A stretch of DNA of 64,000 nt from an uncultured Candidatus Saccharibacteria bacterium. Lineage in GTDB: Bacteria > Patescibacteriota > Doudnabacteria > UBA920. The DNA lies in assembly GCA_964483665.1 (NCBI GenBank), contig CAZACP010000001.1, positions 6,358 to 70,357 on the forward strand, in the 5' to 3' direction. Shown here piece by piece: positions 4,543-53,587 of the stretch. A program made the translations under genes and the position numbers. The first letter of the stretch is position 1, and each line of letters begins with the position of its first letter. The notes below the pieces were generated by a model. That model saw only the letters and a program-made list of their open reading frames with translations. It made no database searches and was not told the origin of the DNA.

Positions 4543-4881
4543 TTATTCGCGTGGCCTGCGAGGCCGGTTAGGCGGTTGATAGCGGCGATCCTTGTATGGA
4601 TCGTCTTTATGCAGCCAGCCGTGAAAGCCTTCTAACCCGTAAATTGAAGGGGGACTGACGTCTTGAGGGTACGACGGGGTTGCGGTTTCGGAAGAACCGC
4701 CGAAGAGCTCAGTTGTCTCTTCTGCGCCGGTCATGAACGGAATTCCTTGGCTTGGGTCGGGTACGAACCCTAACCCTCCAGAAAAAGGCATATTGTGGCT
4801 TGTTCGAGTTGGCGGGTTTCCTAGACCCATAAACCCTTCCATAATTTCATCATGGTTTGCGATAGTTAAACAGTGTGCCAT
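4543..4881 (-). CDS. Orphan G+C-rich small protein (Pro/Gly/Ser-rich, basic C-terminal tail)
   Basis: Only long ORF in a visibly GC-rich patch; perfect SD ggaggaaagtgATG; no family recognised. Confidence 0.45.
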   Translation of the reverse strand: MAHCLTIANHDEIMEGFMGLGNPPTRTSHNMPFSGGLGFVPDPSQGIPFMTGAEETTELFGGSSETATPSYPQDVSPPSIYGLEGFHGWLHKDDPYKDRRYQPPNRPRRPRE

Positions 4882-5175
4882 CACTTTCCTCCTCTCCGGG
4901 GAAGTATAAAAAATTACAGAGAGAGAGTCAACTATTCACAGATACACAGATAATATGCAGATTGCACAGATAAGCATATTGTCATTCCGAGCGGAGCGAG
5001 GAATCGCTTCGCGATTGTTTATTAACAAGTTTTAGTATTACCGAAAGTTAAGGGATCCTTCGACTCCTCGACAATTTTAATCTAAAAATTGTCTCGTTGC
5101 TCAGGATTACAAAACATGTTGAGATTGGTTATATTTTTACCTATTTTATACCTTAATTTTTTGATTAGAAATAAC

Positions 5176-5218
5176 AAACGCCGCGGTGTAAACCTCCAGG
5201 TTCCGCAGCGTTTTTTTG
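5176..5218. terminator. Bidirectional hairpin terminator
   Basis: aaacgccgcgg...ccgcagcgttt stem with T-runs on both sides. Confidence 0.5.
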
Positions 5219-5233
5219 TTGTTCAAGGACAAG

Positions 5234-5452
5234 TTAATCCTCATCTTCATCATCGCTTTCATCGAGAGGGCAGTCGGTGCACCGGCCGCTTCCACAACAC
5301 CCGTGAGCTTCGAGGTATTCGTTATAAAGTTTGAGAATTTTATCTATATGGTAGGTACCATCTTTTAACCTTCCTTCTGCTAAGGCTTTCTTTGCCCAAG
5401 CTTCTGCCATGAAGTGGCTACCACCGGTAATGATCATGAGCCTCCTTTTCAT
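5234..5452 (-). CDS. Small Cys-rich protein with acidic tail (HGCCGSGRCTDCPLDESDDEDED); unknown function
   Basis: Starts 9 nt after the miaA stop on the same strand, so probably co-transcribed; aaggaggctcATG SD at the second Met. Confidence 0.5.
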   Translation of the reverse strand: MKRRLMIITGGSHFMAEAWAKKALAEGRLKDGTYHIDKILKLYNEYLEAHGCCGSGRCTDCPLDESDDEDED

Positions 5453-5461
5453 GATACCTTA

Positions 5462-6472
5462 TCATTTTCCTAAAAATTTTTCAACCGGCTTTGCGGTTTT
5501 TGAAAAGTCGGGCGGAAGCCAAATTATTTGTTTACTCTTTCTCCACCACGTAAGTTGGCGTTTTGAATAATGTTTTATGGCGAAAAGCAATTGCGTGAAC
5601 ATTTCATCGTAAGTTAGCTTTTTTTGCAGATACAAAGAAATAAATCGGTATTCAAGGCCAAAACTATTTAAACGTTTCCAAGATAAACCTCTCCCACCTC
5701 TCGCATTCGCTCGAGGCACCCTCTCCATGCTTTGGAGAGGGTGATTGTGTAGGTCTGCGACTTCTTTTATTATTCCTTGCTTAAAGCGCTCTTTAAGGCG
5801 TTTTTCTATTTTTTTATATAAATCTTTTTGATTGGTTTTTATGCCGAGCCATAAAGTAGGGTAGAGGGTAGAGGGCTGGGGCTTGAGTGGGGAAATGGGT
5901 TTTTTTGTTGCCTCGATGATTTCTAACGCGCGGATTAAGCGTCGTTTGTTGAATCTATCAGTGGTACTTGCCCGAGCTGGATCAAGTTTTGCAAGCTGTT
6001 TGTAAAGTTCTTCAGCAGATTTTTTTTCTAAAGCTGCGCGGAGTTTTTTGTTGGGTTTAACATCCGGGAGTTTTTGGTTATAAACGACCGCGTCTATCCA
6101 ATGAGCGGTTCCGCCACATAGAATAGGCAGTTTGCCTCTTTTTAAAACAGCAGAAATTGCTTTTTGCGCGTCCTTCTTAAAAAGCGCGGCAGAGAATTGT
6201 TTTTTTGGGTTTACGTAGTCTATGCAGTGGTGAAAAACGCCTTTGTATCTGTAAAACGCACGGCCGTGTGTTTTTACGGAAATCCATTTGCCCGGGATCT
6301 TGCCCGTGCCTAAATTAAGTCCTTTATAAATTTGCCGGCTGTCTGCGGAAATTATTTCACCGTTAAAACGCTTTGCTAGTTTTACTGCCAGTTCACTTTT
6401 GCCCGAAGAGGTAGGGCCAACAAGTACTAAAATTTTAGATTTTAGATTTAAGATTTTAGATTTTGAAAACAT
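5462..6472 (-). CDS. miaA: tRNA dimethylallyltransferase
   Basis: P-loop GPTSSGKSELAVKLA...IISADSRQIYKGL; the N-terminal SKSKILNLKSKIL is encoded by the tttagattttag word repeat. Confidence 0.9.
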   Translation of the reverse strand: MFSKSKILNLKSKILVLVGPTSSGKSELAVKLAKRFNGEIISADSRQIYKGLNLGTGKIPGKWISVKTHGRAFYRYKGVFHHCIDYVNPKKQFSAALFKKDAQKAISAVLKRGKLPILCGGTAHWIDAVVYNQKLPDVKPNKKLRAALEKKSAEELYKQLAKLDPARASTTDRFNKRRLIRALEIIEATKKPISPLKPQPSTLYPTLWLGIKTNQKDLYKKIEKRLKERFKQGIIKEVADLHNHPLQSMERVPRANARGGRGLSWKRLNSFGLEYRFISLYLQKKLTYDEMFTQLLFAIKHYSKRQLTWWRKSKQIIWLPPDFSKTAKPVEKFLGK

Positions 6473-11379: not shown

Positions 11380-11459
11380 ACCGTAAAAGTTAATTTTAAA
11401 TTTTAAATTCTAAATTTTAATTTACCCTATTTACTCCATATATCTGCGAAACAACAATT

Positions 11460-12698
11460 ATGAGACAATCAAAATATTTTTTAAAGACCAGCAAAACTAA
11501 GCCGGCCGAAGACACATCGGCAAATGCTATTTTGCTCGAGCAGGGCGGGTTTGTTTATAAAGAAATGGCAGGAGTTTACGCTTATTTGCCTTTGGGTTTT
11601 AGAGTTATAGAAAAAATAAAAAATATTATTAGAGAAGAGATGAACGCTATCGGTGGCCAAGAATTGATTATGACTAGCCTGCAGCGCAAGGAGGTTTGGG
11701 AAAAAACTAATCGTTGGGATGATAATAAAGTGGATGTGTGGTTTAAATCTAAACTAAAAAATGGCGCTGACGTAGGATTAGCATGGTCACATGAGGAGCC
11801 AATTACGACTATGATGCTAAATTATATAAGCAGCTATAGAGATTTACCCGCTTATGTTTATCAATTTCAGACGAAACTTAGAAACGAACTCAGGGCAAAA
11901 AGCGGAATTTTAAGAGGCCGAGAGTTTGTGATGAAAGATTTGTATTCATACAGCCTTAGTCCTGAGGCTCATGAAGAATTTTATCAAAAAGCAATTTCAG
12001 CATATTTAAAAATTTTTGAACGGGTTGGTTTGGGAGAATCGACATTTTTAACTTTCGCTTCGGGCGGAGCGTTTACACAGTTCAGCCACGAATTTCAGAC
12101 CGTGCTTGAAGCTGGTGAAGATGTTATTTATTTAGACCGTAAGAAAAAAATAGCGATTAACAAGGAAGTTTTAACCGAGGAAGTATTAAAACAGCTAAAT
12201 TTAAAACGTGAGGAATTAGAAGAAGTAAAAGCCTCAGAAACCGGCAATATTTTTAATTTTGGCACTACTAAATCTGAACAAATAGGTTTGTATTATAAAG
12301 ATCAACAAGGAAGCAGAAAGCCTGTCATTTTAGGTTCGTATGGTATTGGTATTACAAGAGTAATGGGAGTAATTGTAGAAAAATTCCACGACGAAAAAGG
12401 CATAATCTGGCCGGAGAGCGTGGCGCCGTTTAAGGTGCATCTAATTAGTTTAAAAGGTGCCGAGAACGAAGCAGAAAATATCTACCAAGCTTTATTAAAA
12501 GAAGGAATTGAGGTATTATTAGATGATCGGGAAGTAAGCGCGGGGGCTAAATTTGCCGACTCGGATTTAATTGGAATCCCGCATAGGGTGATAGTTTCAC
12601 CTAAGACCATTGAACAATCATCCGTAGAAATTAAAAAACGATCAGATATAGAATCTAAATTAGTTAAAACTAGGGAGTTAGTTAAATACCTACAATAA
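11460..12698 (+). CDS. proS: Prolyl-tRNA synthetase, compact form without the INS editing domain
   Basis: Class II motifs and an anticodon-binding C-terminus; only 412 aa. Confidence 0.8.
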   Translation: MRQSKYFLKTSKTKPAEDTSANAILLEQGGFVYKEMAGVYAYLPLGFRVIEKIKNIIREEMNAIGGQELIMTSLQRKEVWEKTNRWDDNKVDVWFKSKLKNGADVGLAWSHEEPITTMMLNYISSYRDLPAYVYQFQTKLRNELRAKSGILRGREFVMKDLYSYSLSPEAHEEFYQKAISAYLKIFERVGLGESTFLTFASGGAFTQFSHEFQTVLEAGEDVIYLDRKKKIAINKEVLTEEVLKQLNLKREELEEVKASETGNIFNFGTTKSEQIGLYYKDQQGSRKPVILGSYGIGITRVMGVIVEKFHDEKGIIWPESVAPFKVHLISLKGAENEAENIYQALLKEGIEVLLDDREVSAGAKFADSDLIGIPHRVIVSPKTIEQSSVEIKKRSDIESKLVKTRELVKYLQ

Positions 12699-12833
12699 AT
12701 CCGAAATTCGAATATCGAAATTCGAAACAATACAAAAATCTAAAATAAAAAATTCAAAAGTCAGTAAGGGTTTGGGAATTTTTAATTTAGGATTTTTTCG
12801 AATTTCGTATTTAGCATTTCGAATTTTTAATTT

Positions 12834-13886
12834 ATGTTTGAAGGCATTTATAAAAAATTTTCCAGCGACATTGGCATAGATCTTGGCACTGCCAATACTT
12901 TGGTCTATGTAAAAGGCAAGGGCATTGTTATAAACGAGCCCTCTGTTGTCGCAATTAACCAAAGAACAAAGCAGATTTTGGCTATTGGCGATGAGGCAAG
13001 AAGAATGGTCGGCAGAACGCCCCCGCACATTGTAGCGACCAGGCCTTTGGTAGATGGAGTGATTTCTGATTTTGAAGTGACGGAAGCTATGCTTAGGTAC
13101 TTTATAGACAAAGTTCATAACCAAACTTTTGCTTTTTTGCGCCGTCCGCGTGTGGTTATTGGCATACCTTCAGGAGTAACTGAAGTGGAAAAAAGGGCGG
13201 TTATTGACGCGGCGGTAAATGCCGGCGCAGCCCAGGCTTTTTTAATAGAGGAGCCTATGGCCGCAGCTGTAGGCTCAAGGCTGCCTATTTCCGAACCGAC
13301 CGGCAGCATGATAATTGACATAGGAGGCGGCACGGCTGAAATTGCGGTTATTTCGTTGGGCGGGATTGTAATTTCTAAAAGCATACGAGTGGCCGGAGAT
13401 GAAATGAACGACAATATTGTCCAGTACGCAAGAGAAAAATTTAATTTGCTTATTGGTCCTCGCACTGCCGAAGAAATAAAAATTAGAATAGGCAGCGCAT
13501 ATCCGCTTGAATCAGCCTTAACCTTGGAGGTTAGGGGCAGGGATTTAGTGACCGGGCTTCCGAGGGAAATTCTAATGAACGACAGCCAGGTTAGGGACGC
13601 GCTTTCCCACAGTTTGAAAATGATTGTTAACAATACGAAATCCGTTATTGAGGGCATTCCGCCTGAATTAATTTCGGACATAATGCATAGGGGTATTGTT
13701 TTGGCGGGCGGTGGAGCGCTTTTAAGAGGGCTTAATAAGTTAATGCATGAAGCAACCGATATGCCGGTAGTTATAGCCGAAGACCCCCTAACTTGCGTAG
13801 CTAGGGGAGCGGGCGTGGTGGTGGAAGATTTGGAAACGCTCAAAGATGTGCTTTTGCCTAATGAATTTGGGAACGTACCTAGGTAA
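12834..13886 (+). CDS. mreB: Rod-shape protein MreB (actin-like ATPase)
   Basis: IGIDLGTANTLVYV... and IDIGGGTAEIAV are hallmarks. Confidence 0.95.
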   Translation: MFEGIYKKFSSDIGIDLGTANTLVYVKGKGIVINEPSVVAINQRTKQILAIGDEARRMVGRTPPHIVATRPLVDGVISDFEVTEAMLRYFIDKVHNQTFAFLRRPRVVIGIPSGVTEVEKRAVIDAAVNAGAAQAFLIEEPMAAAVGSRLPISEPTGSMIIDIGGGTAEIAVISLGGIVISKSIRVAGDEMNDNIVQYAREKFNLLIGPRTAEEIKIRIGSAYPLESALTLEVRGRDLVTGLPREILMNDSQVRDALSHSLKMIVNNTKSVIEGIPPELISDIMHRGIVLAGGGALLRGLNKLMHEATDMPVVIAEDPLTCVARGAGVVVEDLETLKDVLLPNEFGNVPR

Positions 13887-21271: not shown

Positions 21272-21377
21272 TTTTATCCCTAATTCATACTTCGCGCTTC
21301 TCGAATTATGAATTTAGGATTTAATAATTAGAATTTGTTTCGGATTTCGATATTCGAATTTAGGATTTAATACGTTT

Positions 21378-22278: not shown

Positions 22279-22959
22279 ATGAAAATCGCTAAACGCGTAA
22301 AAGCCAATATGGCTTTAGTGGAAAAAGATAAAGTATATAGCCCGGAAGAGGCTATAGAGCTTGCTAAAAAAACCGCTAACACTAAGTTTGTCGGCAGCGT
22401 TGAAGTTCATGTAAAAATGAAAATCGACTCAAAGAAAACCGACCAGGCTGTTCGCGGCACGGTTAGCTTGCCAAACGGCACAGGCAAAAGCAAGAAAGTT
22501 GCGGCTTTTGTTACGGAAAGCAAGGAAAAAGAAGCCAAAGAAGCCGGGGCTTTTGTAGTTGGCGGCGAAGAATTAATAAAGCAAATTAAAGAAACCGGCA
22601 AAGTGGACTTTGAGGTTGCTATTGCCGAACCGGCAATGATGATAAAATTAGCTCCCCTGGCCAAGATTTTAGGACCAAAAGGCGTAATGCCCAACCCTAA
22701 GACCGGCACTGTAGGCGAGAATATTGGCCAAATTGTGAAGGAAATTGCAGGCGGAAAGGTTAACTTTAAGAACGACGACAGCGGCAATATCCACCAAATT
22801 ATTGGCAAAACCAATTTTGAAAGCAAAGCGCTTTTGGAAAATTTAAAGGCTTTTTACTCGGCTTTAGTGGCAGCCAAGCCGGCTACCCTGAAGGGCCAGT
22901 TTATTTCCGGAGTGAGCTTAAATTCCACAATGGGCCCTGGAATAAAGGTGAAGATTTAA
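22279..22959 (+). CDS. rplA: 50S ribosomal protein L1
   Basis: L1 conserved blocks (FVGSVEVHVKM..., GPKGVMPNPKTGTV). Confidence 0.95.
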   Translation: MKIAKRVKANMALVEKDKVYSPEEAIELAKKTANTKFVGSVEVHVKMKIDSKKTDQAVRGTVSLPNGTGKSKKVAAFVTESKEKEAKEAGAFVVGGEELIKQIKETGKVDFEVAIAEPAMMIKLAPLAKILGPKGVMPNPKTGTVGENIGQIVKEIAGGKVNFKNDDSGNIHQIIGKTNFESKALLENLKAFYSALVAAKPATLKGQFISGVSLNSTMGPGIKVKI

Positions 22960-23011: not shown

Positions 23012-23051
23012 CTATATTTAATTTGCATTTACCTATAACTAAAAACTCCTT

Positions 23052-23483
23052 ATGTCTGACGATTCGATGAAAAAAGTTTTAATAGTTGAGGACGACATAG
23101 ATTTTAGAAATCCGCTTAGGGATTTTTTAACCGCCCAGGGTTTTGCCGTGAGCGTGGCCGACGACGGAGAGCAGGCTATAGATAGAATGCTGGTTCACAG
23201 GCCGCATTTAATTATTTTAGATTTGTTATTGCCTAAAATTCACGGTTTTGAAGTTTTAAAAAGGATCCGTGAATATCCTGAGGCGGAAGTTGCCAAAATC
23301 CCGGTGATTATTTTGAGTAATTTAGCCAGCGAAGCCGACGTAAAACAGGGGAATGCTTTGGGCGTTAGCGCGTATTTTATAAAAGCGCATACGTCAAAGG
23401 ACGAAATTTTGGCCAAAATTAAAGAAATTTTATTTGGCAGCGCGGACGCGAAAACCAGTGATGTTTGGGATTTTACGCAATGA
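23052..23483 (+). CDS. Stand-alone response-regulator receiver domain protein (paralog of 19184..19570)
   Basis: VLIVEDD...LIILDLLLP...; C-terminal ILSNLASEAD...YFIKAHT parallels the other copy. Confidence 0.8.
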   Translation: MSDDSMKKVLIVEDDIDFRNPLRDFLTAQGFAVSVADDGEQAIDRMLVHRPHLIILDLLLPKIHGFEVLKRIREYPEAEVAKIPVIILSNLASEADVKQGNALGVSAYFIKAHTSKDEILAKIKEILFGSADAKTSDVWDFTQ

Positions 23484-23530
23484 CCGCAGATACGCAGATT
23501 AAAAACAGATCGCGTATATAAAAAATAAGA

Positions 23531-23566
23531 AAGCCGCCGTTGGTGGTTACCGCGGGCGGCTTTTTG
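23531..23566. terminator. Bidirectional terminator
   Basis: aaagccgccgttggtggttaccgcgggcggcttttt with T-runs on both strands. Confidence 0.75.
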
Positions 23567-23586
23567 CTTTTCGCGCTGGTTGGCGC

Positions 23587-23751
23587 TTATATAGAACAAA
23601 CGCTTGATGTCGACAGGGTTGGGTTTTCCTGAATGATTAGCTGAGCCTCAAGCCAGTCATTCAAATCGTCTGTGCTGGGAATCCAATGGGGGATTTTCAG
23701 ATCCACGCCTTTAAATTCCGCTAACATCATCAGATGCTTTGTATATAACAT
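23587..23751 (-). CDS. Orphan 54-aa protein with a perfect SD (tctggaggataagtATG)
   Basis: Internal ATG of the listed ORF 23587..23814; GGAGG at the ideal spacing. Confidence 0.45.
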   Translation of the reverse strand: MLYTKHLMMLAEFKGVDLKIPHWIPSTDDLNDWLEAQLIIQENPTLSTSSVCSI

Positions 23752-23965
23752 ACTTATCCTCCAGATTTGTAGTTTCACGGACACCCAAGAAATTAGGTAT
23801 CCATCAAAATACAAAAACCCGTCCCGCTAAGCGGGACGGGTTTGTAAAATGTAAGGAATTAATTACTTACATACAAAAACCTCGCCCCAGCGGGGGTAAG
23901 TAGGCTAAGAAGCAAACCTAAGGTTTTTTGTATGAAATTCATAGAAATATTTTAAACCAATTAAA

Positions 23966-24092
23966 AAATTTTGTCAACCCAGTAGAATTACATTACTATT
24001 TGTAAAAAATAATTTTCAATATTTTTAACTAATTTATTTAAGTATAAAACAATTGCGAATAACTAGGTTGTAATGTAGATCTACTGGGTCAA
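23966..24092. repeat. About 25-nt imperfect inverted repeat (tgtcaacccagtagaattacattac / gtaatgtagatctactgggtcaaaa) around a ~55-bp AT-rich spacer
   Basis: Read directly from the sequence; MITE-like or an operator palindrome. Confidence 0.7.
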
Positions 24093-24113
24093 AAGTAAAA
24101 GCAGCTCTGGGGG

Positions 24114-24416
24114 CTAGTATGGGGTCGTTTTGCCCGCGGAGCTGCTTTTTTGTTCGTTACTCGATATTTCCTCCTTGTTATGGGGCCGGTTTGGCCTCGT
24201 AGTCTTTGTCAAAAGTTGGGCCTGAGAGCTCAACTTTGCAACAATACTTTGTTTCGACGCTCTGTTTAATGTTTGGTCCCAGATTTTAAAACTGAGCGTT
24301 AGACAACTATTTCTCTGGACGCAAATTAGGCGTATTTCAGCCTTCTTGCCATCCAAAACCACTTCAATCGGGGCAGGCCTTTCATTATTGAGAGGCTGAA
24401 TAAATCGGATGGTCAT
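24114..24416 (-). CDS. Orphan 100-aa protein with a perfect SD (ccggaggacgcaaaaATG)
   Basis: Starts MTIRFIQPLNNERPAPIEVVLDGKKAEIRL; a faint AbrB/MazE-like N-terminal flavour only. Confidence 0.45.
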   Translation of the reverse strand: MTIRFIQPLNNERPAPIEVVLDGKKAEIRLICVQRNSCLTLSFKIWDQTLNRASKQSIVAKLSSQAQLLTKTTRPNRPHNKEEISSNEQKSSSAGKTTPY

Positions 24417-24457
24417 TTTTGCGTCCTCCGGTCCGCCTTTGGCGGGCCGCAAGATAC

Positions 24458-24482
24458 AAAAAAACTCCCCGGCTTTAGGGAG
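24458..24482 (-). terminator. Minus-strand hairpin terminator upstream of the orphan gene
   Basis: ctccctaaagccggggag followed by ttttttt on the minus strand. Confidence 0.5.
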
Positions 24483-24628
24483 TAAAAGGGTTTAAATTTT
24501 ATAAAATTTATTAAACCATATTTTTTGTCCCAAAGCCAAAGCCAGATGACTTCTTAGTCATCTTAGTGGTCTTGGTTGTAAGGGACAAAATGTTATTCAT
24601 ATAGCAATTTTATGGTTAAAAACTATTT

Positions 24629-24657
24629 TTGTCAAAGACGGTAAATTATAGTAATAT
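24629..24657 (+). promoter_or_regulatory. Sigma-70-type promoter for dcd (TTGTCA-17-TAATAT)
   Basis: ttgtca aagacggtaaattatag taatat, 38 nt before the dcd ATG. Confidence 0.5.
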
Positions 24658-24694
24658 TAAACAGTGCAATTAAACAATCATCAAAATTAAAAAT

Positions 24695-25285
24695 ATGATT
24701 CTTTCTGACAAAGACATAAAAAAAGCCTTAAAAAATGGCCAGATTAGCATAGACCCTTTGTTCCCGGGCAGCATTCAGCCGGCCAGCGTGGACTTGCACT
24801 TGGGCCCGGATTTTTTAGTTTTTTCCACAGACCAGCATACCTGCATAGACCCTAAACAGCCCATAGACGATATGATGAAAGCAGTAAAAATAGACGACAA
24901 GCGCCAATTTATTTTGCACCCGGGTGAATTTGCTTTGGGTATGGTGTATGAAGTTGTGGGCGTGGCAGACAATATGGTAGGCAGGCTCGAAGGCAAATCT
25001 TCCTTAGGCAGAATGGGACTAATAATTCACGCCACAGCCGGGTACTTGGACCCCGGCAACAAGCTAAAAATGACTTTAGAGCTTTCTAATTTGTCTACTT
25101 TGCCAATAAAGCTGTATTACAAAATGCCTATTGCGCAAATGTCGTTTACCCCGCTATCATCACCAGCGGAAAACGCTTATGGCAAAACCAAATTAAATTC
25201 TAAATACTACGGAGCAATGAAGCCTCAGGCCAGCCAGTACTATAAAAATTTTACTAAGAATAATGGTTGGATGAAAATGAAGTAG
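24695..25285 (+). CDS. dcd: dCTP deaminase
   Basis: MILSDKDI...SVDLHLG... motifs of the dCTP deaminase/dUTPase superfamily; 196 aa. Confidence 0.9.
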   Translation: MILSDKDIKKALKNGQISIDPLFPGSIQPASVDLHLGPDFLVFSTDQHTCIDPKQPIDDMMKAVKIDDKRQFILHPGEFALGMVYEVVGVADNMVGRLEGKSSLGRMGLIIHATAGYLDPGNKLKMTLELSNLSTLPIKLYYKMPIAQMSFTPLSSPAENAYGKTKLNSKYYGAMKPQASQYYKNFTKNNGWMKMK

Positions 25286-25808: not shown

Positions 25809-25822
25809 ATTTTAAATTTCAA

Positions 25823-29034: not shown

Positions 29035-29241
29035 TTATCTCGTTACCTTAATAAACCACCTATACGCGGCTGCGACGCCTATTGGAGCGGCTGCTAGGAT
29101 CGAGGATCCTAAATGGGCCGCCGCCTTTCGGCTCTCGCCGAAAATTGGTGAATCATCCATGTGCCACATGGTTGGCACAAACCAACCGTACCAAAGATAG
29201 CCGAAAGCGACAGTACATACTAGACAAACCAACTTTTTCAT
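29035..29241 (-). CDS. Small hydrophobic protein (Trp-rich TM), uncertain
   Basis: ORF in a GC-richer patch; gagggtttATG start context. Confidence 0.3.
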   Translation of the reverse strand: MKKLVCLVCTVAFGYLWYGWFVPTMWHMDDSPIFGESRKAAAHLGSSILAAAPIGVAAAYRWFIKVTR

Positions 29242-30575: not shown

Positions 30576-30676
30576 ATAAAAATTTGATATAATTAATTTA
30601 TTGAACTCGCATACAGAAATAAATTAATTTCGAAAAAGTATCTGTGGTATCTGTGCGCTGAAAAGATCTGTGATCT

Positions 30677-31354: not shown

Positions 31355-31456
31355 TTAATTAAAAATAAATAAAATTAAGTAAAATTGATCATAATTTATG
31401 TGCAGAAATTTTTATTTAATTTTATTTAATTATGGTCAATCTTATTTAATTTCATA
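31355..31456. repeat. Conserved AT-rich intergenic element, copy 2 (matches 755..856)
   Basis: aaattaagtaaaatt...gtgcagaaatttttatttaattttatttaattatggtcaatcttatttaat. Confidence 0.7.
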
Positions 31457-33135: not shown

Positions 33136-33587
33136 AGCCTTCTCCCGGCGGGGAGAAGGTGCCCGAAGGGCGGATGAGGGTGTTATATGCGCAACATAAA
33201 CAAAAGCTTTGTTAATCTTTCTAGGAATTTAAGAAAAAACGAAACACCTTGGGAAATAAAGTTATGGCAAAGGTTAAGGGGAAGGAAATTTTTAGGATTT
33301 AAATTTAAAAAACAATTGGTTATAGGTAATTATATTTACGACTTTGGCTGCTTTGAAAAGAGACTATTAATTGAACTAGATGGCGGACAATATAGTGAAA
33401 ATGATATTAAAGATAAAGATCAAATTAAGGAAGATTTTGCAAAAAACCAGGGCTATAAAATTATCAGGTTTTGGAATAATGAACTAGACAACAATTTTGA
33501 AGGAGTTTTGGAGACAATTAGAAAAAACTTATTATAACCCTCATCCGGCCGTTGGCCACCTTCTCCCCTAAAGGGAGAAGGCAAACT
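33136..33587. mobile_element. Composite miniature element: DUF559 ORF bracketed by inverted copies of the ccctcatccg/ccttctccc hairpin MITE
   Basis: Left copy 33136..33183 (reverse orientation), right copy 33537..33587; the arms are conserved and the small hairpins differ but remain stems. Confidence 0.7.
33187..33537 (+). CDS. DUF559 (Vsr-like endonuclease-fold) domain protein
   Basis: WEIKLWQRLRGRKFLGFKFKKQ...IELDGGQY matches the DUF559 pattern. Confidence 0.7.
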   Translation: MRNINKSFVNLSRNLRKNETPWEIKLWQRLRGRKFLGFKFKKQLVIGNYIYDFGCFEKRLLIELDGGQYSENDIKDKDQIKEDFAKNQGYKIIRFWNNELDNNFEGVLETIRKNLL

Positions 33588-40779: not shown

Positions 40780-41050
40780 TTTGCCCTGGCCGAAATACCA
40801 GGGAAAATGGCTCATATTTACCACCTCATCCCGCGTGAGCCATAAAGTCGTCAACCTTCAAAAATGTCCCCGCAAGCTGTTAAAAAATTTTTGAAGGAAA
40901 TGGCGGCGTGTTGTTGTTAGCCAAGGAGGAACTGTCTATAGGGCATGCGTGAGCTTGCTTACAAACCTGAGACTTTATACAGCCTCTGGTTTTGACTTTT
41001 GTCCTCCTTGGCCGGCTGGTTGATGCAGCCGGTCTTTTTATTTGTTTAAC
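40780..41050 (+). other. GC-rich structured non-coding region upstream of iscS; candidate cis-regulatory RNA or sRNA
   Basis: Several hairpins; 11-nt long-range complementarity gccaaggagga / tcctccttggc; ends in the ccggctg...cagccgg hairpin plus T-run. Confidence 0.3.
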
Positions 41051-43573: not shown

Positions 43574-44542
43574 TTATGTTCTATTATTGTTTAGCCAATT
43601 AGCTACTGCTTCAACGCCTGCAGCCCAATTCGGACAAAAGCTACGTCTTTGTCCGCTGTCTGTATTTCCATAATTTCCCGGATTGCAAGTATCTACCGCC
43701 ACACCATCAACCCCGTAATGACTGTCGACTTCCATAATTGCCATTAGCACCCTAATGTCGATATTTCTTGCCGCGTTAACAACCATATCACCAGTAAGTG
43801 GGCTTCTTATATTTCCGCCTTTAAAAATTTGAGCTGACCTGTCCATATATGACTTTACTTTTTCAGGGGTGCTTAAATCTTGTCTAAGTAAATTATTATA
43901 TCTGTCCTTAACTAGGTTTTCATGATTAGCATCGGTCGCATAACGGCGAATGTTGTAGCCGGCTAAAATAAATGGAGTACCGTTATTTCCGTTTGCTCCC
44001 GGCAAGCTTGAGCCTGGCACAAAACCAGGAATATAAGCAGGCTGCAGCGTCACACTCGGCGGCTGTATAGGCCTAAACTTAATCAGGTCTGGGTTTAAAG
44101 CTTTAAGTAGAATATAGCCGGCAAACAAAATAACTAAAGAAGTAACTGTGCTGGCTAATATGCTTTTAGCTTTGTCTACAGATTCCTGGTTGCCACCGGC
44201 TCCAATATACAAATATCCGGCAATCACTATAAAAAATACGCCGACTACAGCAGCTGTCACTATGGCAAACCTATACAGCCTGTTTATGCAGTTATATAAA
44301 TCACCGCTGGAAACGTTATTAGCGCCCGATGAATCCAAATGGCCTCCAAAAGCATTTGTAGCAAGATTAGTTTGGCTTTTCTCCGGATCCGAAGGAGCGC
44401 ATAAATATTGTTTTATTTGAGCTCCAACTCCGGCTGTAGTGTAATCTGCGCTGCCGGAAGTGGTGTTTTGGGCAAAGGCAAGGTTTAAAAAACCTATTGC
44501 CAAATAAAAACAAATCGAAATAAGTAAGAGTTTTTTAGGCAT
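43574..44542 (-). CDS. Fusion protein: TrbC/VirB2-like pilin-type N-terminal module (signal peptide, Cys pair, two TM helices) plus a lysozyme/lytic-transglycosylase-like C-terminal domain
   Basis: N-terminal 150 aa nearly identical to the paralog at 44574..45548; C-terminus LMAIMEVDSHYG...CNPGNYG resembles the SLT E-S...NP catalytic region. Confidence 0.6.
   Translation of the reverse strand: MPKKLLLISICFYLAIGFLNLAFAQNTTSGSADYTTAGVGAQIKQYLCAPSDPEKSQTNLATNAFGGHLDSSGANNVSSGDLYNCINRLYRFAIVTAAVVGVFFIVIAGYLYIGAGGNQESVDKAKSILASTVTSLVILFAGYILLKALNPDLIKFRPIQPPSVTLQPAYIPGFVPGSSLPGANGNNGTPFILAGYNIRRYATDANHENLVKDRYNNLLRQDLSTPEKVKSYMDRSAQIFKGGNIRSPLTGDMVVNAARNIDIRVLMAIMEVDSHYGVDGVAVDTCNPGNYGNTDSGQRRSFCPNWAAGVEAVANWLNNNRT
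44052..44310. repeat. Direct repeat, copy B (identical to 45070..45328); a second block 44385..44486 matches 45390..45491
   Basis: 259 bp identical by eye; encodes the shared TM-hairpin module. Confidence 0.85.
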
Positions 44543-44573: not shown

Positions 44574-45548
44574 TTATGGGCACTTGCCTTTTAAATCTAT
44601 GTGCAAATGAAAACTTTGGTCTCTGTCTCTGCCCGGGTTTATGCGATCCTCGGTAATACCAGCCTGTTTTGCTGCGTTATAAATAGCTTCACCAACCGGA
44701 CGGCCTTTGTGAGCTTTAATGTCATAAAAACCGCTTCCCAGCCTGTCGCTAAAGTCTACGGCGCAGCCAAGTTGGTGCTGAGAGCCTTTTGATTCTCTCC
44801 TTACAGTTGAACTAACCTGAGGCTTGCTTCCGCTTTGCGAAGCCACGGAACAAATTTGCAAAAGTTTTTGCCACATAGGCGCGGCCAAATTAGGCAGCTC
44901 GTTGCGCGGCCTGTCTTCGCTGGTTATAGTACAGCCCGCGGCTTCTAATTGCGCAATGCTTCCGCCGGCTGAACCGGTTATAGGGGTTGTAACCTGGGCT
45001 GAAGCTGGGATTTGGGCTGCCGGAGGTTCTCCGGTTTCTGCTTCCGGCGGCTCTGCCGTATCTAAAACTACACTCGGCGGCTGTATAGGCCTAAACTTAA
45101 TCAGGTCTGGGTTTAAAGCTTTAAGTAGAATATAGCCGGCAAACAAAATAACTAAAGAAGTAACTGTGCTGGCTAATATGCTTTTAGCTTTGTCTACAGA
45201 TTCCTGGTTGCCACCGGCTCCAATATACAAATATCCGGCAATCACTATAAAAAATACGCCGACTACAGCAGCTGTCACTATGGCAAACCTATACAGCCTG
45301 TTTATGCAGTTATATAAATCACCGCTGGCTTTGTTGTTATTAGCTGAATACTCGACCTGGCTGCCGGTAAAATTTGTTTGTTTTGGGTCGGGATCCGAAG
45401 GAGCACATAAATATTGTTTTATTTGAGCTCCAACTCCGGCTGTGGTGTAATCTGCGCTGCCGGAAGTAGTGTTTTGGGCAAAGGCAAGGTTAACCCAAGC
45501 CGTAAGGGTGTAAAAGAATATTGTTACAACAAGAATCTTTTTAAGCAT
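44574..45548 (-). CDS. Fusion protein: the same pilin-type N-terminal module plus a peptidase M15A (YcbK/MepK-like, LAS zinc peptidase) C-terminal domain
   Basis: SQHQLGCAVDFS ... DQSFHLHID matches the HxxGxAxD / HxH zinc-binding motifs of M15 peptidases. Confidence 0.65.
   Translation of the reverse strand: MLKKILVVTIFFYTLTAWVNLAFAQNTTSGSADYTTAGVGAQIKQYLCAPSDPDPKQTNFTGSQVEYSANNNKASGDLYNCINRLYRFAIVTAAVVGVFFIVIAGYLYIGAGGNQESVDKAKSILASTVTSLVILFAGYILLKALNPDLIKFRPIQPPSVVLDTAEPPEAETGEPPAAQIPASAQVTTPITGSAGGSIAQLEAAGCTITSEDRPRNELPNLAAPMWQKLLQICSVASQSGSKPQVSSTVRRESKGSQHQLGCAVDFSDRLGSGFYDIKAHKGRPVGEAIYNAAKQAGITEDRINPGRDRDQSFHLHIDLKGKCP
45070..45328. repeat. Direct repeat, copy A
   Basis: See 44052..44310. 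Confidence 0.85.
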
Positions 45549-48493: not shown

Positions 48494-48536
48494 AAAGTAA
48501 ATGACAAAAATTAAATAATTGACAAAAATGACAAAA

Positions 48537-48890
48537 TTATTCCCAAACTAAAGTTAATATTAGACCAATAAATCCTAAAATTAAACCGGCTATTGCGCCT
48601 TTAGTTGGGAGTTGGTGGGAAACGTAATAAGTCATTAGTGGTTCGGCAACCAAAATTGAGGTTATGGAAATTACTGTTACTATCCAAATATTTTTAAATG
48701 CTCTTAATCCAAACATATAGCCGCACAAAAGCATAAAGGTGCTAACTAAAGCAAAAAGCACGACTTTCCCGATTACCGGCCAAAAAGGTTTTTGTTCTGT
48801 ATAAAATAAACGAGCTGAAAGAACCTCAGCGTAAATTATAAGAGCTTCGCCAACAAACAGTACCAGACTGGAAATAATTTTTTGATACAT
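48537..48890 (-). CDS. Small 4-TM membrane protein (SMR/ArnE-ArnF-like fold?)
   Basis: 117 aa with four hydrophobic segments; next to the TagA-like glycosyltransferase. Confidence 0.4.
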   Translation of the reverse strand: MYQKIISSLVLFVGEALIIYAEVLSARLFYTEQKPFWPVIGKVVLFALVSTFMLLCGYMFGLRAFKNIWIVTVISITSILVAEPLMTYYVSHQLPTKGAIAGLILGFIGLILTLVWE

Positions 48891-48899
48891 ATTTTGCCA

Positions 48900-50243
48900 T
48901 TATATTATAGCTTTTTCGAGCATTTCTTTCAAATCATTTTGTACAATTTTGGCCAAAGTTTCTCTTTCGGGATGTACTTGTGAATTGAGTTCTTGGATAC
49001 TCGCCCATTTAAAACCTATAAACTCTTTTTGATCCATTTGAATTTCAGTGTCTGAACCTAAAAATTTTAAATAAACTATGGTTTGTTTTTGCCCGCAGTT
49101 TTTATGGTTTCTGTTTTTAAACAGTTTGCGAAGCGCGTTGTTCCAATAATAGATGTTTGTTTTGTCGGAAATTTTAATTAGGTCTAAATTTTTTATACCT
49201 GTTTCTTCAAAAGCTTCCCGCTTGGCCGCGGCAGTTGTCTCCTCTCCTTTGTCTATACCGCCTTGTGGCAACTGCCAGTAGTTTTTTTGTTTAAGTCTTT
49301 CTTCGGAATTAATCAGATCTATATAAAAATCTTTGGGGCTTCTTTCGCCGATTAAAACTTTATTTTCTTTATTTAAAATTACCACAGCCACGTTTTGCCT
49401 AAGCGGGTAGCTGTTAAAAATTTTATACCTCATTAGCATGGCTATAAGCCCAAAAGTCGCGTTAAAAATGCGCCTTAGCCTATATGGCTGGGTTATTAGC
49501 CTAAATAGCCATTCTAAACCCATTTTACGCACAAATTTGGGCGGATTTAGGCGCTTTTTGGCAATATAGTCAAAAGTACCGCCCAGGCCAATTGCCAATT
49601 TTACGGGCAAATTTTTAAGGTTGGCCTGTATCCAGGCCTCCTGTTTAATTGGCCCGTAGGCTACAAATAATATGTCAGGTGAAGCTTTTTTTATGTCTTC
49701 GTATATGGTAGGATCTTCCGGATTCTTACCCGAGAAACCGGCAATACGGAGGCCGGGATATTTTGTTATTAAAATATTCGAAACTAGTTTTGGAGTATTT
49801 CCAAAACCGCCTAAAAGGTAAATTGAAAAATTATTTTCTTCAGCCATTTTGGCAATATCCCAAATCAGCTCTGAACCCGGAATGGTTTCAAAATCCCTTT
49901 TTTTAAATAAAAGTTTTAATAGAGTTAGCTTTATTTGCCAAAGGCTTTGTAAAATTTTTCCCAAATACGATTTTGCGGTAAGCGGCAAATTTAAAAATTT
50001 ATGCGCCCAAAAAATTCCTATGCCGTCTGGCACGGCAATATCCGCCTGGTTTAGCATTGTCATAACCCTAGGGTCCTTTAGGGCCGCATACAAAAATTCC
50101 GAGTAAACAGTGGTTACCCAGGTTTGTTGATTTAAAGCTATACGATTTTTTAACTTATCGATAAGTTCTGATTTGGGCAGAGTATCGATTTTAAGTCCCG
50201 CAACGTCTATTTTATGCATAAGAAAATTATACCTATTTACCAT
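48900..50243 (-). CDS. WecB/TagA/CpsF-family glycosyltransferase fused to a C-terminal Nudix hydrolase domain
   Basis: N-terminal TagA-like fold; C-terminal Nudix box GGIDKGEETTAAAKREAFEETGI. Confidence 0.7.
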   Translation of the reverse strand: MVNRYNFLMHKIDVAGLKIDTLPKSELIDKLKNRIALNQQTWVTTVYSEFLYAALKDPRVMTMLNQADIAVPDGIGIFWAHKFLNLPLTAKSYLGKILQSLWQIKLTLLKLLFKKRDFETIPGSELIWDIAKMAEENNFSIYLLGGFGNTPKLVSNILITKYPGLRIAGFSGKNPEDPTIYEDIKKASPDILFVAYGPIKQEAWIQANLKNLPVKLAIGLGGTFDYIAKKRLNPPKFVRKMGLEWLFRLITQPYRLRRIFNATFGLIAMLMRYKIFNSYPLRQNVAVVILNKENKVLIGERSPKDFYIDLINSEERLKQKNYWQLPQGGIDKGEETTAAAKREAFEETGIKNLDLIKISDKTNIYYWNNALRKLFKNRNHKNCGQKQTIVYLKFLGSDTEIQMDQKEFIGFKWASIQELNSQVHPERETLAKIVQNDLKEMLEKAII

Positions 50244-50353
50244 TGACTTTTCAATACAAATAAGGTATATTTAGGTGTTTTCTGTCTGAAGCTTGCTTTA
50301 GGTAAAAAACCGTACGATGAATTTCGTTACGAACCTATGTTGGAGGAAAAACT

Positions 50354-50737
50354 GTGACTTCAAAAAGAGTTCTAACAGCTCTTGAGTCTCAACAGGTTAG
50401 TGCAATGGCTCAAGCTATTGTTACTATTCGTTCAATCAACTTCAGCTTACTACTACAAGTAGGAACTGAATTTGACCTCATGCTTGCATCGCTGTATCCT
50501 TTTGGTATCTTGGGGGTTATGGCTGTGATGCAAAGCTCGATGTCGGGTGAAAGTCGTAAGGCTTTTTACGTGCACCTGATGTCCGGACTGCCGTATTACT
50601 ATACCAGTTTTGGCGACATCGTAAGGTGCGTATTCGGTGGAGACGAAATAGCGGCAAGGCAGGCCTTGGCAATAGGTCAGGAAATTCTGGAACTTGCCCC
50701 ACAGCATTTTCCGGAATTACGTAGGATTGGGTTGTAG
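50354..50737 (+). CDS. Orphan GC-richer protein, GTG start with perfect SD (ggaggaaaaactGTG)
   Basis: 127 aa; no family recognised. Confidence 0.4.
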   Translation: MTSKRVLTALESQQVSAMAQAIVTIRSINFSLLLQVGTEFDLMLASLYPFGILGVMAVMQSSMSGESRKAFYVHLMSGLPYYYTSFGDIVRCVFGGDEIAARQALAIGQEILELAPQHFPELRRIGL

Positions 50738-51401: not shown

Positions 51402-51887
51402 ATGATTTTGCCAATAAAAAAACACCCGGATCCAGTGCTTAGGGCTAAAACAGAGCCAGTGGTTTTTCCTTTGTCTCCACAAATAGAGAAATTAACCAAA
51501 GATATGTTTGACACAGTAAAGGCCGCAGACGGTATCGGGCTTGCCGCGCCGCAGGTCGGCAAGAGTGTAAAATTAATTGTCATAAACTTGGAAAAATCCG
51601 GCGTTCCTTTGTTCGCGCTTTACAACCCGCGCATTAAGTCAAAAGGATTTAGAAAAGTGGAAATAGAAGAAGGCTGTCTTTCTTTGCCGGGAATTTACGG
51701 TATGGTTAAGCGGCCAAAAAAAGTTATTATAGAAGCCCAAAACCACAAGGGAGAAAAAATTCTAATTCGCGACGACGGCTGGGTTTCCAGGGTTGCCCAG
51801 CATGAAATAGACCACATAAACGGAATTTTAATAATAGACCTTATAAAGAAATACACAAAGGGAGAAAATTTACTAAATACGAATTAA
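51402..51887 (+). CDS. def: Peptide deformylase
   Basis: GIGLAAPQVG, EGCLSLPG and HEIDHING motifs; the upstream tacttactac words are intergenic. Confidence 0.9.
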   Translation: MILPIKKHPDPVLRAKTEPVVFPLSPQIEKLTKDMFDTVKAADGIGLAAPQVGKSVKLIVINLEKSGVPLFALYNPRIKSKGFRKVEIEEGCLSLPGIYGMVKRPKKVIIEAQNHKGEKILIRDDGWVSRVAQHEIDHINGILIIDLIKKYTKGENLLNTN

Positions 51888-51950
51888 TACGAATATACTA
51901 ATTTTGTTCCCATTCGTATATTAGTAAGTATTAGTATTTTGGTAAAAAAT

Positions 51951-52490
51951 ATGAAGTTTATAAAAGACCTTTTATTTTTCGAAATTAGCACTACCGGGCC
52001 GGATTTAGACAAAGACAACATTATTCAGCTTTCCGCCGTGCTTATAGACAAAGACAACCTTTTGGAAAAGGATTTTTTTAATTCCTATATCCGCATAAGC
52101 TATTTAGACAGTTTGCTTTTGGCGCATTCAAAGTTGCTAAATATAGACTATGAAAAAATGAAGAAAAGCCCAAAGCCACCCGAGGCTTTAAAGGCTTTTC
52201 ACAACAAGTTTAACCCGGCTTTAATTTTACTGGCCACCCAGAGCACCAGCAATATTTTGTTTTTAAAATCGGCTTTTAGAAAAGTCCTTTTGCCTTTTGA
52301 CTACAACCAGCACTCCTTAGACCTGTGGACTTTGGGCTACGTTTACACTTTAAATTACGGTCTTAAAAAAATGCCTTCTTTACATACTTTTGTCGAGTAT
52401 TTTAAACTTAAGCAGCACTACCCTTACGACGCGCTTGAAAAAGCCCGTCTTGAGGCGGAAATTTTTAGAAAAATAATTAAAGAAGTGTAA
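51951..52490 (+). CDS. DnaQ-like 3'-5' exonuclease paralog with degenerate catalytic motifs
   Basis: Exo I FFEISTTG (D and E not conserved) and Y instead of H in Exo III (YDALEKAR). Confidence 0.55.
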   Translation: MKFIKDLLFFEISTTGPDLDKDNIIQLSAVLIDKDNLLEKDFFNSYIRISYLDSLLLAHSKLLNIDYEKMKKSPKPPEALKAFHNKFNPALILLATQSTSNILFLKSAFRKVLLPFDYNQHSLDLWTLGYVYTLNYGLKKMPSLHTFVEYFKLKQHYPYDALEKARLEAEIFRKIIKEV

Positions 52491-52586
52491 CCCATTCGAA
52501 CCTGCGAATTAATCCGAATAATCCTTATACTTATGTATTTAGACTTCGGGTCATTCGGATGTTGTTCGGATATTAGGAGCGCTACT

Positions 52587-53141
52587 ATGAATTTTCACAA
52601 AGATTTATTACTCATTGATCTAGAAACCACCGGACTTGATGCGTCTCGTCAGGAAATTATTCAGTTGTCCGCTATACTGCTGGACAAGAAAACTTTAAAG
52701 GAAAAAAGTTTTTTTAATGCTTATGCAAAACCTGTTAAATGGGCGCAAAGAAACAAAGAGTCTATGAGAATAAACGGCATAAAAAAGGAATGGCTTAACG
52801 CCGCTCCGTCGCTTAGCAGCGTTTTAAAGGAATTTAACAAAAAGTTTAATGCCTCAGAAGTTATTTTGAGTTACTATGGCGGGCCGGTGGATATGGATTT
52901 TTTGCGCGCCGCATACTATAAGCACAAAATAAAATGGCAGTTCGATTACCATTATTTTAACCTTTGGGCGTATTTTTACGCGGTACTGGCTGGAAAAAAT
53001 CAACTTAAAAACAAAAAAAAGTTTACCGGTTTTAGTTTGGAAGATTTAATGAAGAAATTTAAAATAAAGTCCCAAAGCCGGCATGACGGCTTAGAGGATT
53101 GTCGGATTGAGGCGGAGGTTTTGAGAAAATTAATAAAATAA
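52587..53141 (+). CDS. DnaQ-like DEDDh 3'-5' exonuclease (intact motifs)
   Basis: Exo I IDLETTG; Exo III HDGLEDC. Confidence 0.7.
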   Translation: MNFHKDLLLIDLETTGLDASRQEIIQLSAILLDKKTLKEKSFFNAYAKPVKWAQRNKESMRINGIKKEWLNAAPSLSSVLKEFNKKFNASEVILSYYGGPVDMDFLRAAYYKHKIKWQFDYHYFNLWAYFYAVLAGKNQLKNKKKFTGFSLEDLMKKFKIKSQSRHDGLEDCRIEAEVLRKLIK

Positions 53142-53251
53142 TTTTGTCTACTTGTATTTTTTATTTCTGTAGATATTTGGATAAAAAAATATTCGGGATC
53201 CAGAAGCCTAGGGGTTTAGGCTGTCGGATCCCGAAATTAGCATGGTCGAGC

Positions 53252-53587
53252 TTATTTTAAGTCTTTCCCGAACAGCCACTCGACTGGCAGTGTCCAATCT
53301 TGCGGCCTATCATCTTCTGGAACCGCCCCTTCTTCCGGCTGGAATTGTCCAACAGTGAATCCCAGACCTTTCGTGTATTCCTCGATAGCGTTTGCCTCCT
53401 CTGGTGTCAGAGCTTCCAACTCTACATTTGCGTGCATATACCCTAGGGCTGCTGCTTCGCGAAGTTGGGGGCGGACCACGGTTCGGTAATACTTGCTTGG
53501 ATTTTTGCTGAACGCTTCTTCTCTAGCTTTCAATGATTTGTATCCGCGCAAGCTGAGTCCGCGTATACTTCTCAGCTGATTTGTCAT
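53252..53587 (-). CDS. Orphan GC-rich small protein with a perfect SD (aaggagtgagtgATG)
   Basis: Sits between the exonuclease pair and fmt; no family recognised. Confidence 0.45.
   Translation of the reverse strand: MTNQLRSIRGLSLRGYKSLKAREEAFSKNPSKYYRTVVRPQLREAAALGYMHANVELEALTPEEANAIEEYTKGLGFTVGQFQPEEGAVPEDDRPQDWTLPVEWLFGKDLK

Follow-up and report, generated by a model that had tools for sequence, protein, structure and literature searches.

A minority of genes led by Shine-Dalgarno (SD) motifs in a genome that otherwise lacks them is a known theme and, to our knowledge, it has not been described for bacteria of the candidate phyla radiation (CPR), a large and mostly uncultured part of bacterial diversity in which the start of translation is barely characterised. 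Morons, in phages or in genomes, are autonomous units of promoter, gene and terminator inserted between conserved genes, often with a deviant G+C content. In Bacteroidia, published accounts describe a ribosome in which bS21, bS18 and bS6 sequester the anti-SD, with SDs at rpsU and at the frameshift site of prfB (PMC7797042, PMC9976891, PMC13000453; Jha 2021, McNutt 2023, Naeem 2026); in Flavobacterium johnsoniae, rpsU is reported to be the one SD-bearing gene, translated by ribosomes that lack bS21 (PMC9976891, PMC13000453). Part of the Parcubacteria has lost the anti-SD, and this loss overlaps the group lacking ribosomal protein uL1 (Tsurumaki et al. 2022, PMC9297842). Here we analyse 64,000 nucleotides (the window) of an uncultured bacterium placed in the Doudnabacteria (contig CAZACP010000001.1, assembly GCA_964483665.1), in which core genes begin without an SD and seven small open reading frames (ORFs) of no recognised family, which we call orphans and name by coordinate (o4543, o5234, o23587, o24114, o50354, o53252 and o57993), each follow a strong one. 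One genome and one ribosome thus face two types of mRNA, SD-less core messages and orphan messages with perfect SDs, which makes for a testable contrast.

When each start is scored by how strongly its 20 upstream nt are predicted to pair with the canonical anti-SD ACCUCCUUA, the two groups separate clearly. The duplex energy is about 0 kcal/mol for nearly all of 66 long ORFs, whereas the seven orphans range from -8.2 to -12.0 kcal/mol, and all seven have a GGAGG-type core 3-9 nt before the start codon. A GGAG or GAGG tetramer lies near any possible start in only 1 of 50 ORFs of at least 150 amino acids (aa). At 51 secure core ATG starts, G makes up 6-12% of positions -1 to -5 and no more than 22% anywhere across -1..-20, where A+T is mostly about 70-90%. 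The initial annotation of this DNA had described the core genes as lacking SDs in an A+T-rich context, and both the duplex energies and the depletion of G bear this out. It had also listed six small ORFs with their SDs; all of the coordinates and motifs hold, with the correction that aaggaggctcATG serves the ATG at 5437 and not the one at 5452. The start regions differ in structure as well, since the mean folding energy of positions -30..+30 is -5.1 kcal/mol for core genes, -11.2 for orphans and -9.5 for random 60-mers, and upstream G+C is 0.44 for orphans vs 0.25 for core genes (p=1.4e-4 for the contrast in structure and G+C). A strong -10 hexamer stands 6-9 nt 5' of the ATG in 7 of the 51 core genes, so some core mRNAs are probably leaderless.

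The motif itself is not rare. GGAGG occurs 61 times on the two strands, roughly as composition predicts, and five of these copies stand at SD spacing ahead of intergenic ORFs. What is unusual is the combination: the 8.6 kb of intergenic DNA holds six SD-led ORFs of at least 50 aa where 0.26 are expected from dinucleotide shuffles (maximum 2, n=500). Long intergenic ORFs of any kind number 25, against 12.4 expected from shuffles. Small SD-led intergenic ORFs are enriched outside this genome too: sister Doudnabacteria have 13 where 1.0 is expected, and other CPR lineages have 8 where 0.8 is expected. Many of these ORFs carry the extended motif AAGGAGGTGA, the exact complement of a canonical 16S tail. 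Some core genes of relatives retain the signal: a sister of higher G+C (L103; L-numbers denote loci from strains and relatives) keeps AAGGAG on genes such as gltX, and a G-rich motif is kept at HU in three species, which suggests that the lineage can read SDs. As a separate observation, the conserved N-terminus MNF(H/K)KD places the start of rnt2, a second RNase T paralogue, at 52587 rather than 52533, with AGGAG 7 nt upstream in this genome only; sister species have no SD there.

The expression signals are better conserved than the ORFs that they serve. In six species, the slot after miaA holds TTG(C/A)AA-17-TAnnnT, a short 5' untranslated region (5'UTR) with AAGGAGG and an ATG, followed by a different ORF in each; the layout seen at o5234 recurs in L007, L010, L011, L009 and L006. 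Because promoter and SD are kept at this slot in six species, the arrangement is old. More widely, in sister Doudnabacteria one to four small SD-led ORFs with a G+C of 0.45-0.62 lie between gatB and miaA, on the strand opposite to gatB (L005, L006, L007, L009, L010 and L011), and the persistence of G+C richness in the positional counterparts of all species argues for maintenance rather than recency. Between L007 and L010 the occupants show homology (E=2e-15), the sole significant pairing among ORFs of the gatB-miaA island, and their pN (nonsynonymous) of 0.27 vs pS (synonymous) of 0.91 indicates purifying selection on what would be a protein. The N-terminus of o4543 weakly resembles its positional counterparts in L007 and L009; a family that joins o4543 to L007, L009 and L011 was considered, but the matches, with E of 0.008-0.03 against a very small database, are marginal and we do not claim it. 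A mobile backbone common to the islands was also sought, and the repeat search gave only short over-represented motifs.

Turnover can be observed between strains. Divergence between strains amounts to 3-5.5% in the island at 23048-24700, compared with 0.1-0.6% in the core. In two strains (L086 and L089) an unrelated 91-aa ORF, again with GGAGG at SD spacing, takes the place of o24114, and in a third (L087) o24114 is diverged, at 57% aa over 100 residues by tblastn and 69% over a 62-aa ORF; the ratio of nonsynonymous to synonymous substitution rates (dN/dS) for o24114 is about 0.48. L087 also lacks 6 nt, in frame, within the 29-aa mini-ORF at 24511-24600, and o23587 is identical across eight strain contigs. 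Elsewhere the comparison concerns the spacers themselves: that of o50354 measures 655 nt here vs about 30-130 nt in most sister species, and that of o53252, between rnt2 and fmt, 588 nt vs 16-164 nt. Comparison with sister genomes, suggested by the initial annotation, thus gives a divided answer, with the slot 3' of miaA kept in six species and o50354, o53252 and o57993 lacking a counterpart. We propose that the fast turnover of occupants behind signals that stay reflects long-term turnover inside the lineage and not one recent import.

The composition of the orphans also sets them apart. Their G+C contents (0.522, 0.456, 0.418, 0.449, 0.458, 0.497 and 0.464; mean 0.466) exceed those of core genes (0.393, standard deviation 0.042; Mann-Whitney p=1.2e-5) in a window of 39.3% G+C, and native intergenic DNA lies at 0.28-0.35 vs 0.42-0.52 for these ORFs. 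The earlier description of the orphans as G+C-richer therefore applies to the group and not to each member, as just two of the seven are outliers: o4543 and o53252 alone top every core gene, and o23587 is ordinary. The encoded proteins are enriched in Arg, Pro, Asp and Glu and depleted in Lys, Ile and Asn, Arg is commoner than Lys, codon usage is atypical, and most of the proteins are acidic. As predicted from their translations, the products appear to be small, mostly acidic and partly prone to disorder, and two look membrane-like.

Searches for relatives were negative throughout. Pfam, NCBIfam, PHROGs, PADLOC, PDB sequences and IMG/VR contigs gave no significant match to any orphan. Among 5.8 billion proteins o53252 and o4543 have no match other than themselves, and the same is true of o50354 among 1.84 billion representative proteins. 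The absence of a recognised family, claimed from the outset, is thus upheld across protein, phage, defence, structure and RNA libraries. For the suggestion in the initial annotation that the orphans may be effectors, toxins or regulators, neither a family nor a structure nor a telling gene neighbourhood came to light. Structured RNAs (RNase P, transfer-messenger RNA (tmRNA), signal recognition particle RNA and 6S RNA) were considered for the G+C-rich patches and rejected by Rfam, in which matches at E up to 5 were at chance level, and by ARAGORN; RNase P had come to mind because GGAGGAAAGTG is reminiscent of its GAGGAAAGUCC motif.

The features of the individual orphans are collected in the table below. 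A recognisable sigma-70 promoter of their own precedes three orphans (o4543, o5234 and o50354), and that of o5234 lies inside the last codons of miaA. Terminator hairpins are visible by reading after o4543, o5234, o23587 and o53252, although the simple terminator scan reported none directly 3' of any orphan, the hairpin of o4543 included. Both starts of o5234 appear in public gene calls, and its product ends in the acidic tail DESDDEDED. o57993 was absent from the initial list, while public assemblies include it among their gene calls; its AAGGAG overlaps the stop codon of queA, so it is probably co-transcribed with queA. A weaker candidate at 29035..29238 lies in a 473-nt spacer (G+C 0.44) and is uncalled in public annotation. 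The locus L181, which belongs to the same genome and extends past the window, adds both SD-led members and SD-less orphans, the latter with a G+C of 0.34-0.35 and starts 7-18 nt after TATAAT-like boxes. Inside the window, the SD-less orphan at 48537-48890 (-) (region 48496-48893) is an A+T-rich ORF of 117 aa between gltX and wecG. It is missing in some strains (L094, L095, L097 and L100), where the ends of gltX and wecG differ slightly, and no counterpart was found in sister species.

Two orphans, o23587 and o24114, have promoter-driven mini-ORFs upstream. The predicted fold of the o24114 leader is much more stable than that of shuffled sequence (z = -6.4), and its SD is buried in a hairpin. 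The mini-ORFs at 24511-24600 and 23859-23942 may encode micro-proteins or leader peptides of the SD genes that lie downstream, or they may be small RNAs. Of the layout of a leader-peptide attenuator, the mini-ORFs, the terminators and a strongly structured leader are present; no alternative antiterminator fold, regulatory codon run or covariation could be recognised. As for type I toxins, only the 27-aa mini-ORF and o57993 are hydrophobic, no notable antisense promoter was found, and PADLOC gave no match.

Table. Orphan genes, their control elements and related features. Coordinates are those of the window unless prefixed by a locus; energies are predicted SD/anti-SD duplex energies in kcal/mol.
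Feature	Coordinates	Strand	Energy	Description
o4543	4543..4881	-	-12.0	112 aa, G+C 0.52, acidic, Pro/Gly-rich
o4543 promoter	4931-4903	-		TTGACT-17-TATACT, 10/12 consensus matches
o4543 5'UTR	4888..4931 (region)	-		about 20 nt, GGAGAGGAGG, core GGAGG 4888-4892, 6 nt before ATG
o4543 terminator-like hairpin and T-run	4497..4536	-		gccgccccg...cggggcggc then tttttttt, right after stop; read from sequence
o5234	5234..5437	-	-11.6	67 aa from ATG 5437; alternative 72-aa start 5452
o5234 control region	5441..5484	-		TTGAAA 5484-5479, 17-nt spacer, TAAGGT 5461-5456, AGGAGG 5446-5441; overlaps miaA 3' end
o23587	23587..23751	-	-9.3	54 aa, G+C 0.42; GGAGG 23758-23762, 6 nt before ATG
Promoter 5' of o23587	23977-23949 (unit 23859..23977)	-		TTGACA-17-TAAAAT, 11/12 matches; ATG 6 nt past -10 box
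Hydrophobic mini-ORF 5' of o23587, probably leaderless	23942-23859	-		27 aa, MNFIQKTLGLLLSLLTPAGARFLYVSN; followed by hairpins with T-runs, terminator 23843-23815
o24114	24114..24416	-		100 aa; GGAGG 24425-24429, 8 nt before ATG; strain-variable cassette
Promoter 5' of o24114	24635-24607 (unit 24456..24635)	-		TTGACA-17-TAAAAT, 11/12 matches
Mini-ORF 5' of o24114, probably leaderless	24600-24511	-		29 aa, MNNILSLTTKTTKMTKKSSGFGFGTKNMV; ATG 6 nt past -10 box
Terminator hairpin 5' of o24114	24483-24464	-		from promoter/terminator scan
o50354	50354..50737	+	-9.3	127 aa, GTG start, predicted helical
o50354 promoter	50243-50271 (unit 50243..50346)	+		TTGACT-17-TATATT, 10/12 matches; about 76-nt 5'UTR, GGAGG 50342-50346
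o53252	53252..53587	-	-8.2	111 aa, G+C 0.50; AAGGAG 53594-53599; promoter weak or unclear
o57993	57993..58199	-	-8.9	68 aa, hydrophobic core, basic tail, G+C 0.46; new member
Weak extra candidate	29035..29238	-		67-aa membrane-like ORF, G+C 0.50, partial SD aagaagagggtttATG, low confidence
Further SD-led member past the window	L181:17280-17612	-		G+C 0.51-0.52 (both members)
Further SD-led member past the window	L181:17899-18063	+		G+C as above
SD-less orphan	48537..48890	-		A+T-rich, apparently leaderless
SD-less orphan past the window	L181:15018-15347			A+T-rich, apparently leaderless
SD-less orphan past the window	L181:19724-19954			A+T-rich, apparently leaderless

Taken together, these results suggest that the orphans are probably real accessory genes for small proteins of about 50-130 aa, which form a translation-initiation class apart from the core genome. 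Core genes would initiate without an SD from AU-rich, G-depleted and unstructured starts, some of them probably leaderless. Most orphans would be compact units in intergenic hot spots, with a near-perfect GGAGG or AAGGAGG in the 5'UTR and, in some cases, their own promoter or hairpin terminator, while o23587 and o24114 appear to lie 3' of promoter-driven mini-ORFs. Since the start regions of the orphans are structured and of normal G+C, recruitment of the 30S subunit would depend there on SD/anti-SD pairing, which suggests a mechanical reason for the dichotomy: unstructured AU-rich or leaderless starts need no SD and structured ones do. On this view the ribosome of the lineage must have kept an anti-SD that works. 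We infer that the SDs are functional and offset mRNA structure, and that the products act in binding, as small proteins that are mostly acidic and in part disordered. Slot occupants would evolve or be exchanged very fast and the expression signals would stay. The idea of a distinct expression class, one of two raised in the initial annotation, is supported by the structured starts of normal G+C, by the SD of the slot conserved in six species and by the enrichment in sisters and other CPR.

Several observations weigh against this interpretation. Scored in frame for codon usage, the orphans come out at about 0, compared with +0.03 to +0.29 for small core genes, so the intrinsic evidence for coding is weak. 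Strain variation is insufficient for dN/dS in five of the seven orphans, the strains being 99.4-100% identical and their contigs having been found by exact-protein look-up, which is biased to identical sequences. AlphaFold single-sequence models of o50354 and o53252 reached a mean confidence (predicted local distance difference test, pLDDT) of 47 and 48 and are unusable. A recognisable promoter or terminator is not present for every orphan, and o24114 is truncated to 62 aa in L087. Furthermore, o50354, o53252 and o57993 have no counterpart in the short syntenic spacers (16-160 nt) of most sisters, which fits insertion as well as turnover. Finally, the anti-SD of the lineage is deduced from motifs and not seen in a 16S rRNA, as no 16S gene lies in the window, in the roughly 10 kb past each end or in any other locus analysed, and about half of Parcubacteria lack the anti-SD motif (Tsurumaki et al. 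2022, PMC9297842).

Four other explanations have to be set against these data. The orphans could be recent acquisitions from an SD-using host, phage or plasmid, with SDs and G+C as relics of the donor that have not yet adapted. Their higher G+C, their atypical codon and amino acid usage (Arg over Lys, rich in Pro), the spacers of o50354, o53252 and o57993 that are short among sisters, the cassette replaced between strains in a locally diverged island and the moron-like layout of promoter, gene and terminator are all consistent with this. However, no homologue was found in 5.8 or 1.84 billion proteins, IMG/VR, PHROGs, PADLOC, NCBIfam or Pfam; the window yielded no integrase, transposase or phage gene in the Pfam tables, no tRNA and no flanking repeat; recent import explains neither the miaA-slot signals common to six species nor the enrichment across the lineage; and the G+C richness kept in the positional counterparts of all species speaks for maintenance. 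We consider it unlikely, though it could hold for the three species-specific insertions (o50354, o53252 and o57993). The broader proposal of foreign origin in the initial annotation keeps circumstantial support from the composition and codon usage, the short sister spacers of three orphans and the one strain-swapped cassette, and it is unproven: donor, homologues, mobility genes and tRNAs were not found, the promoters look native and the miaA slot persists across species. Birth de novo in expanded intergenic DNA, the SD having made new transcripts translatable, would account for the strict lack of relatives, the disorder-prone composition, the near-neutral codon usage and the spacers that are short in relatives, but ORFs of 0.42-0.52 G+C are unlike translated native spacer of 0.28-0.35, and no alignable non-coding ancestral counterpart was found in sister species, making this a very improbable origin.

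Two further alternatives concern how, or whether, the orphans are translated. If the anti-SD were sequestered as in Bacteroidia, a ribosome subpopulation (lacking bS21, for example) could read the SD genes conditionally and the SD would be a regulatory switch. The near absence of core SDs beside a few perfect ones, an AU-rich, G-depleted context that resembles SD-independent start selection, the stable hairpin around the SD of o24114 and the precedent of F. johnsoniae rpsU (PMC9976891, PMC13000453) all point this way. The SD-bearing genes here are nevertheless diverse orphans and not rpsU, which like the genes for bS18 and bS6 falls outside the sequence covered, and AAGGAG on ordinary core genes of some sisters suggests a ribosome that is not SD-blind, so we hold specialised ribosomes to be improbable. 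It is also conceivable that the orphans are not protein genes, the G+C-rich patches being structured non-coding RNAs or remnants with accidental ORFs and GGAGG inside helices. The codon-usage scores near zero, the very stable predicted leader of o24114, the low-confidence structure models and an intergenic hairpin at 40920-41010 that pairs AAGGAGGA with UCCUCCUU without a convincing ORF would fit. Against this, Rfam (E up to 5), tRNA and tmRNA searches returned no family, the combination of SD, spacing, start and ORF of at least 50 aa is enriched about 20-fold over shuffles in three independent sequence sets, long intergenic ORFs are twice as many as expected, the L007/L010 pair bears marks of purifying selection, dN/dS is 0.48 for o24114, and replacement cassettes retain both SD and ORF. 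Of all the accounts, this one seems to us the least probable.

The setting of the orphans is an ordinary bacterial core. Pfam confirms gatC/A/B, miaA, frr, mreB/C, nusG, rplK/A, dcd, dut, tmk, thyA, folA, prfB, ftsE/X, rplI, pyrG, gltX, def, fmt, queA and HU, which supports every gene name that the initial annotation had given to the core (gatA, gatB, frr, mreB, nusG, rplK, thyA, pyrG and prfB). No tRNA or tmRNA (ARAGORN) and no Rfam family above the gathering threshold was found in the window. Relatives of GatB all come from Candidatus Doudnabacteria or Patescibacteria metagenome-assembled genomes, the nearest species at 73-78% identity, and the window sequence is present also in an NCBI contig and several metagenome assemblies. 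The gene at 29424-30527 is prfB, which encodes release factor 2 (SPF and GGQ motifs) in a single uninterrupted ORF without a frameshift site. At 43574-44542 and 44574-45548 (-) lie tandem paralogues with a weak match to type IV secretion system (T4SS) pilins, which share a block of about 430 nt at 91-93% identity (44052-44485 vs 45070-45491), suggesting recent duplication or gene conversion. Three A+T-rich small ORFs between core genes (2387-2752, 27170-27544 and 33187-33537; G+C 0.26-0.30) belong to 23S_rRNA_IVP (a four-helix bundle), PDDEXK_3 and DUF559 and are outliers in the direction opposite to the SD-led orphans. Inverted repeats of 32 nt (33150-33181 and 33537-33568; 88% complementary) frame the DUF559 gene, a hint that it may be a small insertion of a mobile or selfish kind.

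The intergenic DNA has features of its own. Between arfC and a cysteine desulfurase gene, the element at 40920-41042 (+) has a perfect 11-bp stem of GCCAAGGAGGA and TCCTCCTTGGC, an SD paired with an anti-SD-like sequence, enclosing about 70 nt and followed directly by a terminator hairpin. It folds at -50.9 kcal/mol (z = -3.6), has just a 16-aa ORF 15 nt downstream and no Rfam match, and is a candidate small RNA or orphaned riboregulator. Many spacers are made up of periodic short A+T-rich oligo repeats (AATTTTAAATTT, GGATTTCGAATTT, AACAATTAAC), found at 766-854, 2338-2382, 11384-11426, 12697-12840, 21296-21369, 25800-25846 and 31352-31450, which recur between unrelated operons on both strands. 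The heptamer ATCTGYG is present in 30 copies where 6.2 are expected (a count reached in 0 of 100 shuffles), in intergenic clusters of two or three copies 8-20 nt apart, often just 5' of start codons or promoters. Its sites include 4937-4971, 23485-23499, 27120-27152, 30640-30672, 55764-55881 and 56574-56606, with a related set, TCTGTAGAT/TTGTAGAT, at 32439, 53685 and 57221, and the repeats also occur 5' of rnt2 in sister species (L104-L106); they may serve as binding sites for a regulator or as a promoter element particular to the lineage. Lastly, at the 3' end of fmt (54458-54598), otherwise near-identical strains (L094 and L098) differ by about 50 substitutions in roughly 110 nt, which suggests a hypervariable segment or a short tract of recombination; GGAGG is found there on both strands (54582 and 54587).

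If the SD class is real, it has several consequences. The anti-SD would be retained and used in Doudnabacteria, and gene finders trained on the SD-less majority would mis-score or miss such genes, one candidate being unannotated already. Slots with exchangeable occupants would be candidates for a fast-evolving interaction or defence repertoire of symbionts, and the regulation by specialised ribosomes known from Bacteroidia could be asked about outside that class. One may speculate further, with quite long odds against the whole, that the CPR run two initiation regimes: SD-less housekeeping genes, and a renewing pool of small proteins in expression slots read only through SD pairing, perhaps gated by ribosome state, so that the SD would act as an address label that switches interaction or defence proteins.

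The locus shares traits with each of the systems described so far and coincides with none. As in the SD-blind Bacteroidia, core genes lack SDs and have A/U-rich starts, and strong extended SDs mark a tiny special class; unlike them, the SD genes here are several unrelated, fast-evolving orphans, prfB has no frameshift site, and some Doudnabacteria sisters keep SDs on core genes. The resemblance to morons lies in compact units, some with promoter and terminator, that lie between core genes of conserved order, frequently on the other strand, deviate in composition and are patchy among relatives. In contrast to morons, the orphans have no prophage context or phage homologues, and the miaA slot is an expression site kept across species. 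Like the small ORFan proteins of CPR/Patescibacteria, they are small, without homologues and specific to species or strains in a reduced genome, but a translation signal and a composition set this subset apart, the SD-less orphans being A+T-rich. In making little or no use of SDs on core genes, this CPR lineage resembles the Parcubacteria that have lost the anti-SD, whereas it differs from them in encoding uL1 (22279..22959), and the AAGGAGG motifs conserved in it imply that an anti-SD is still present.

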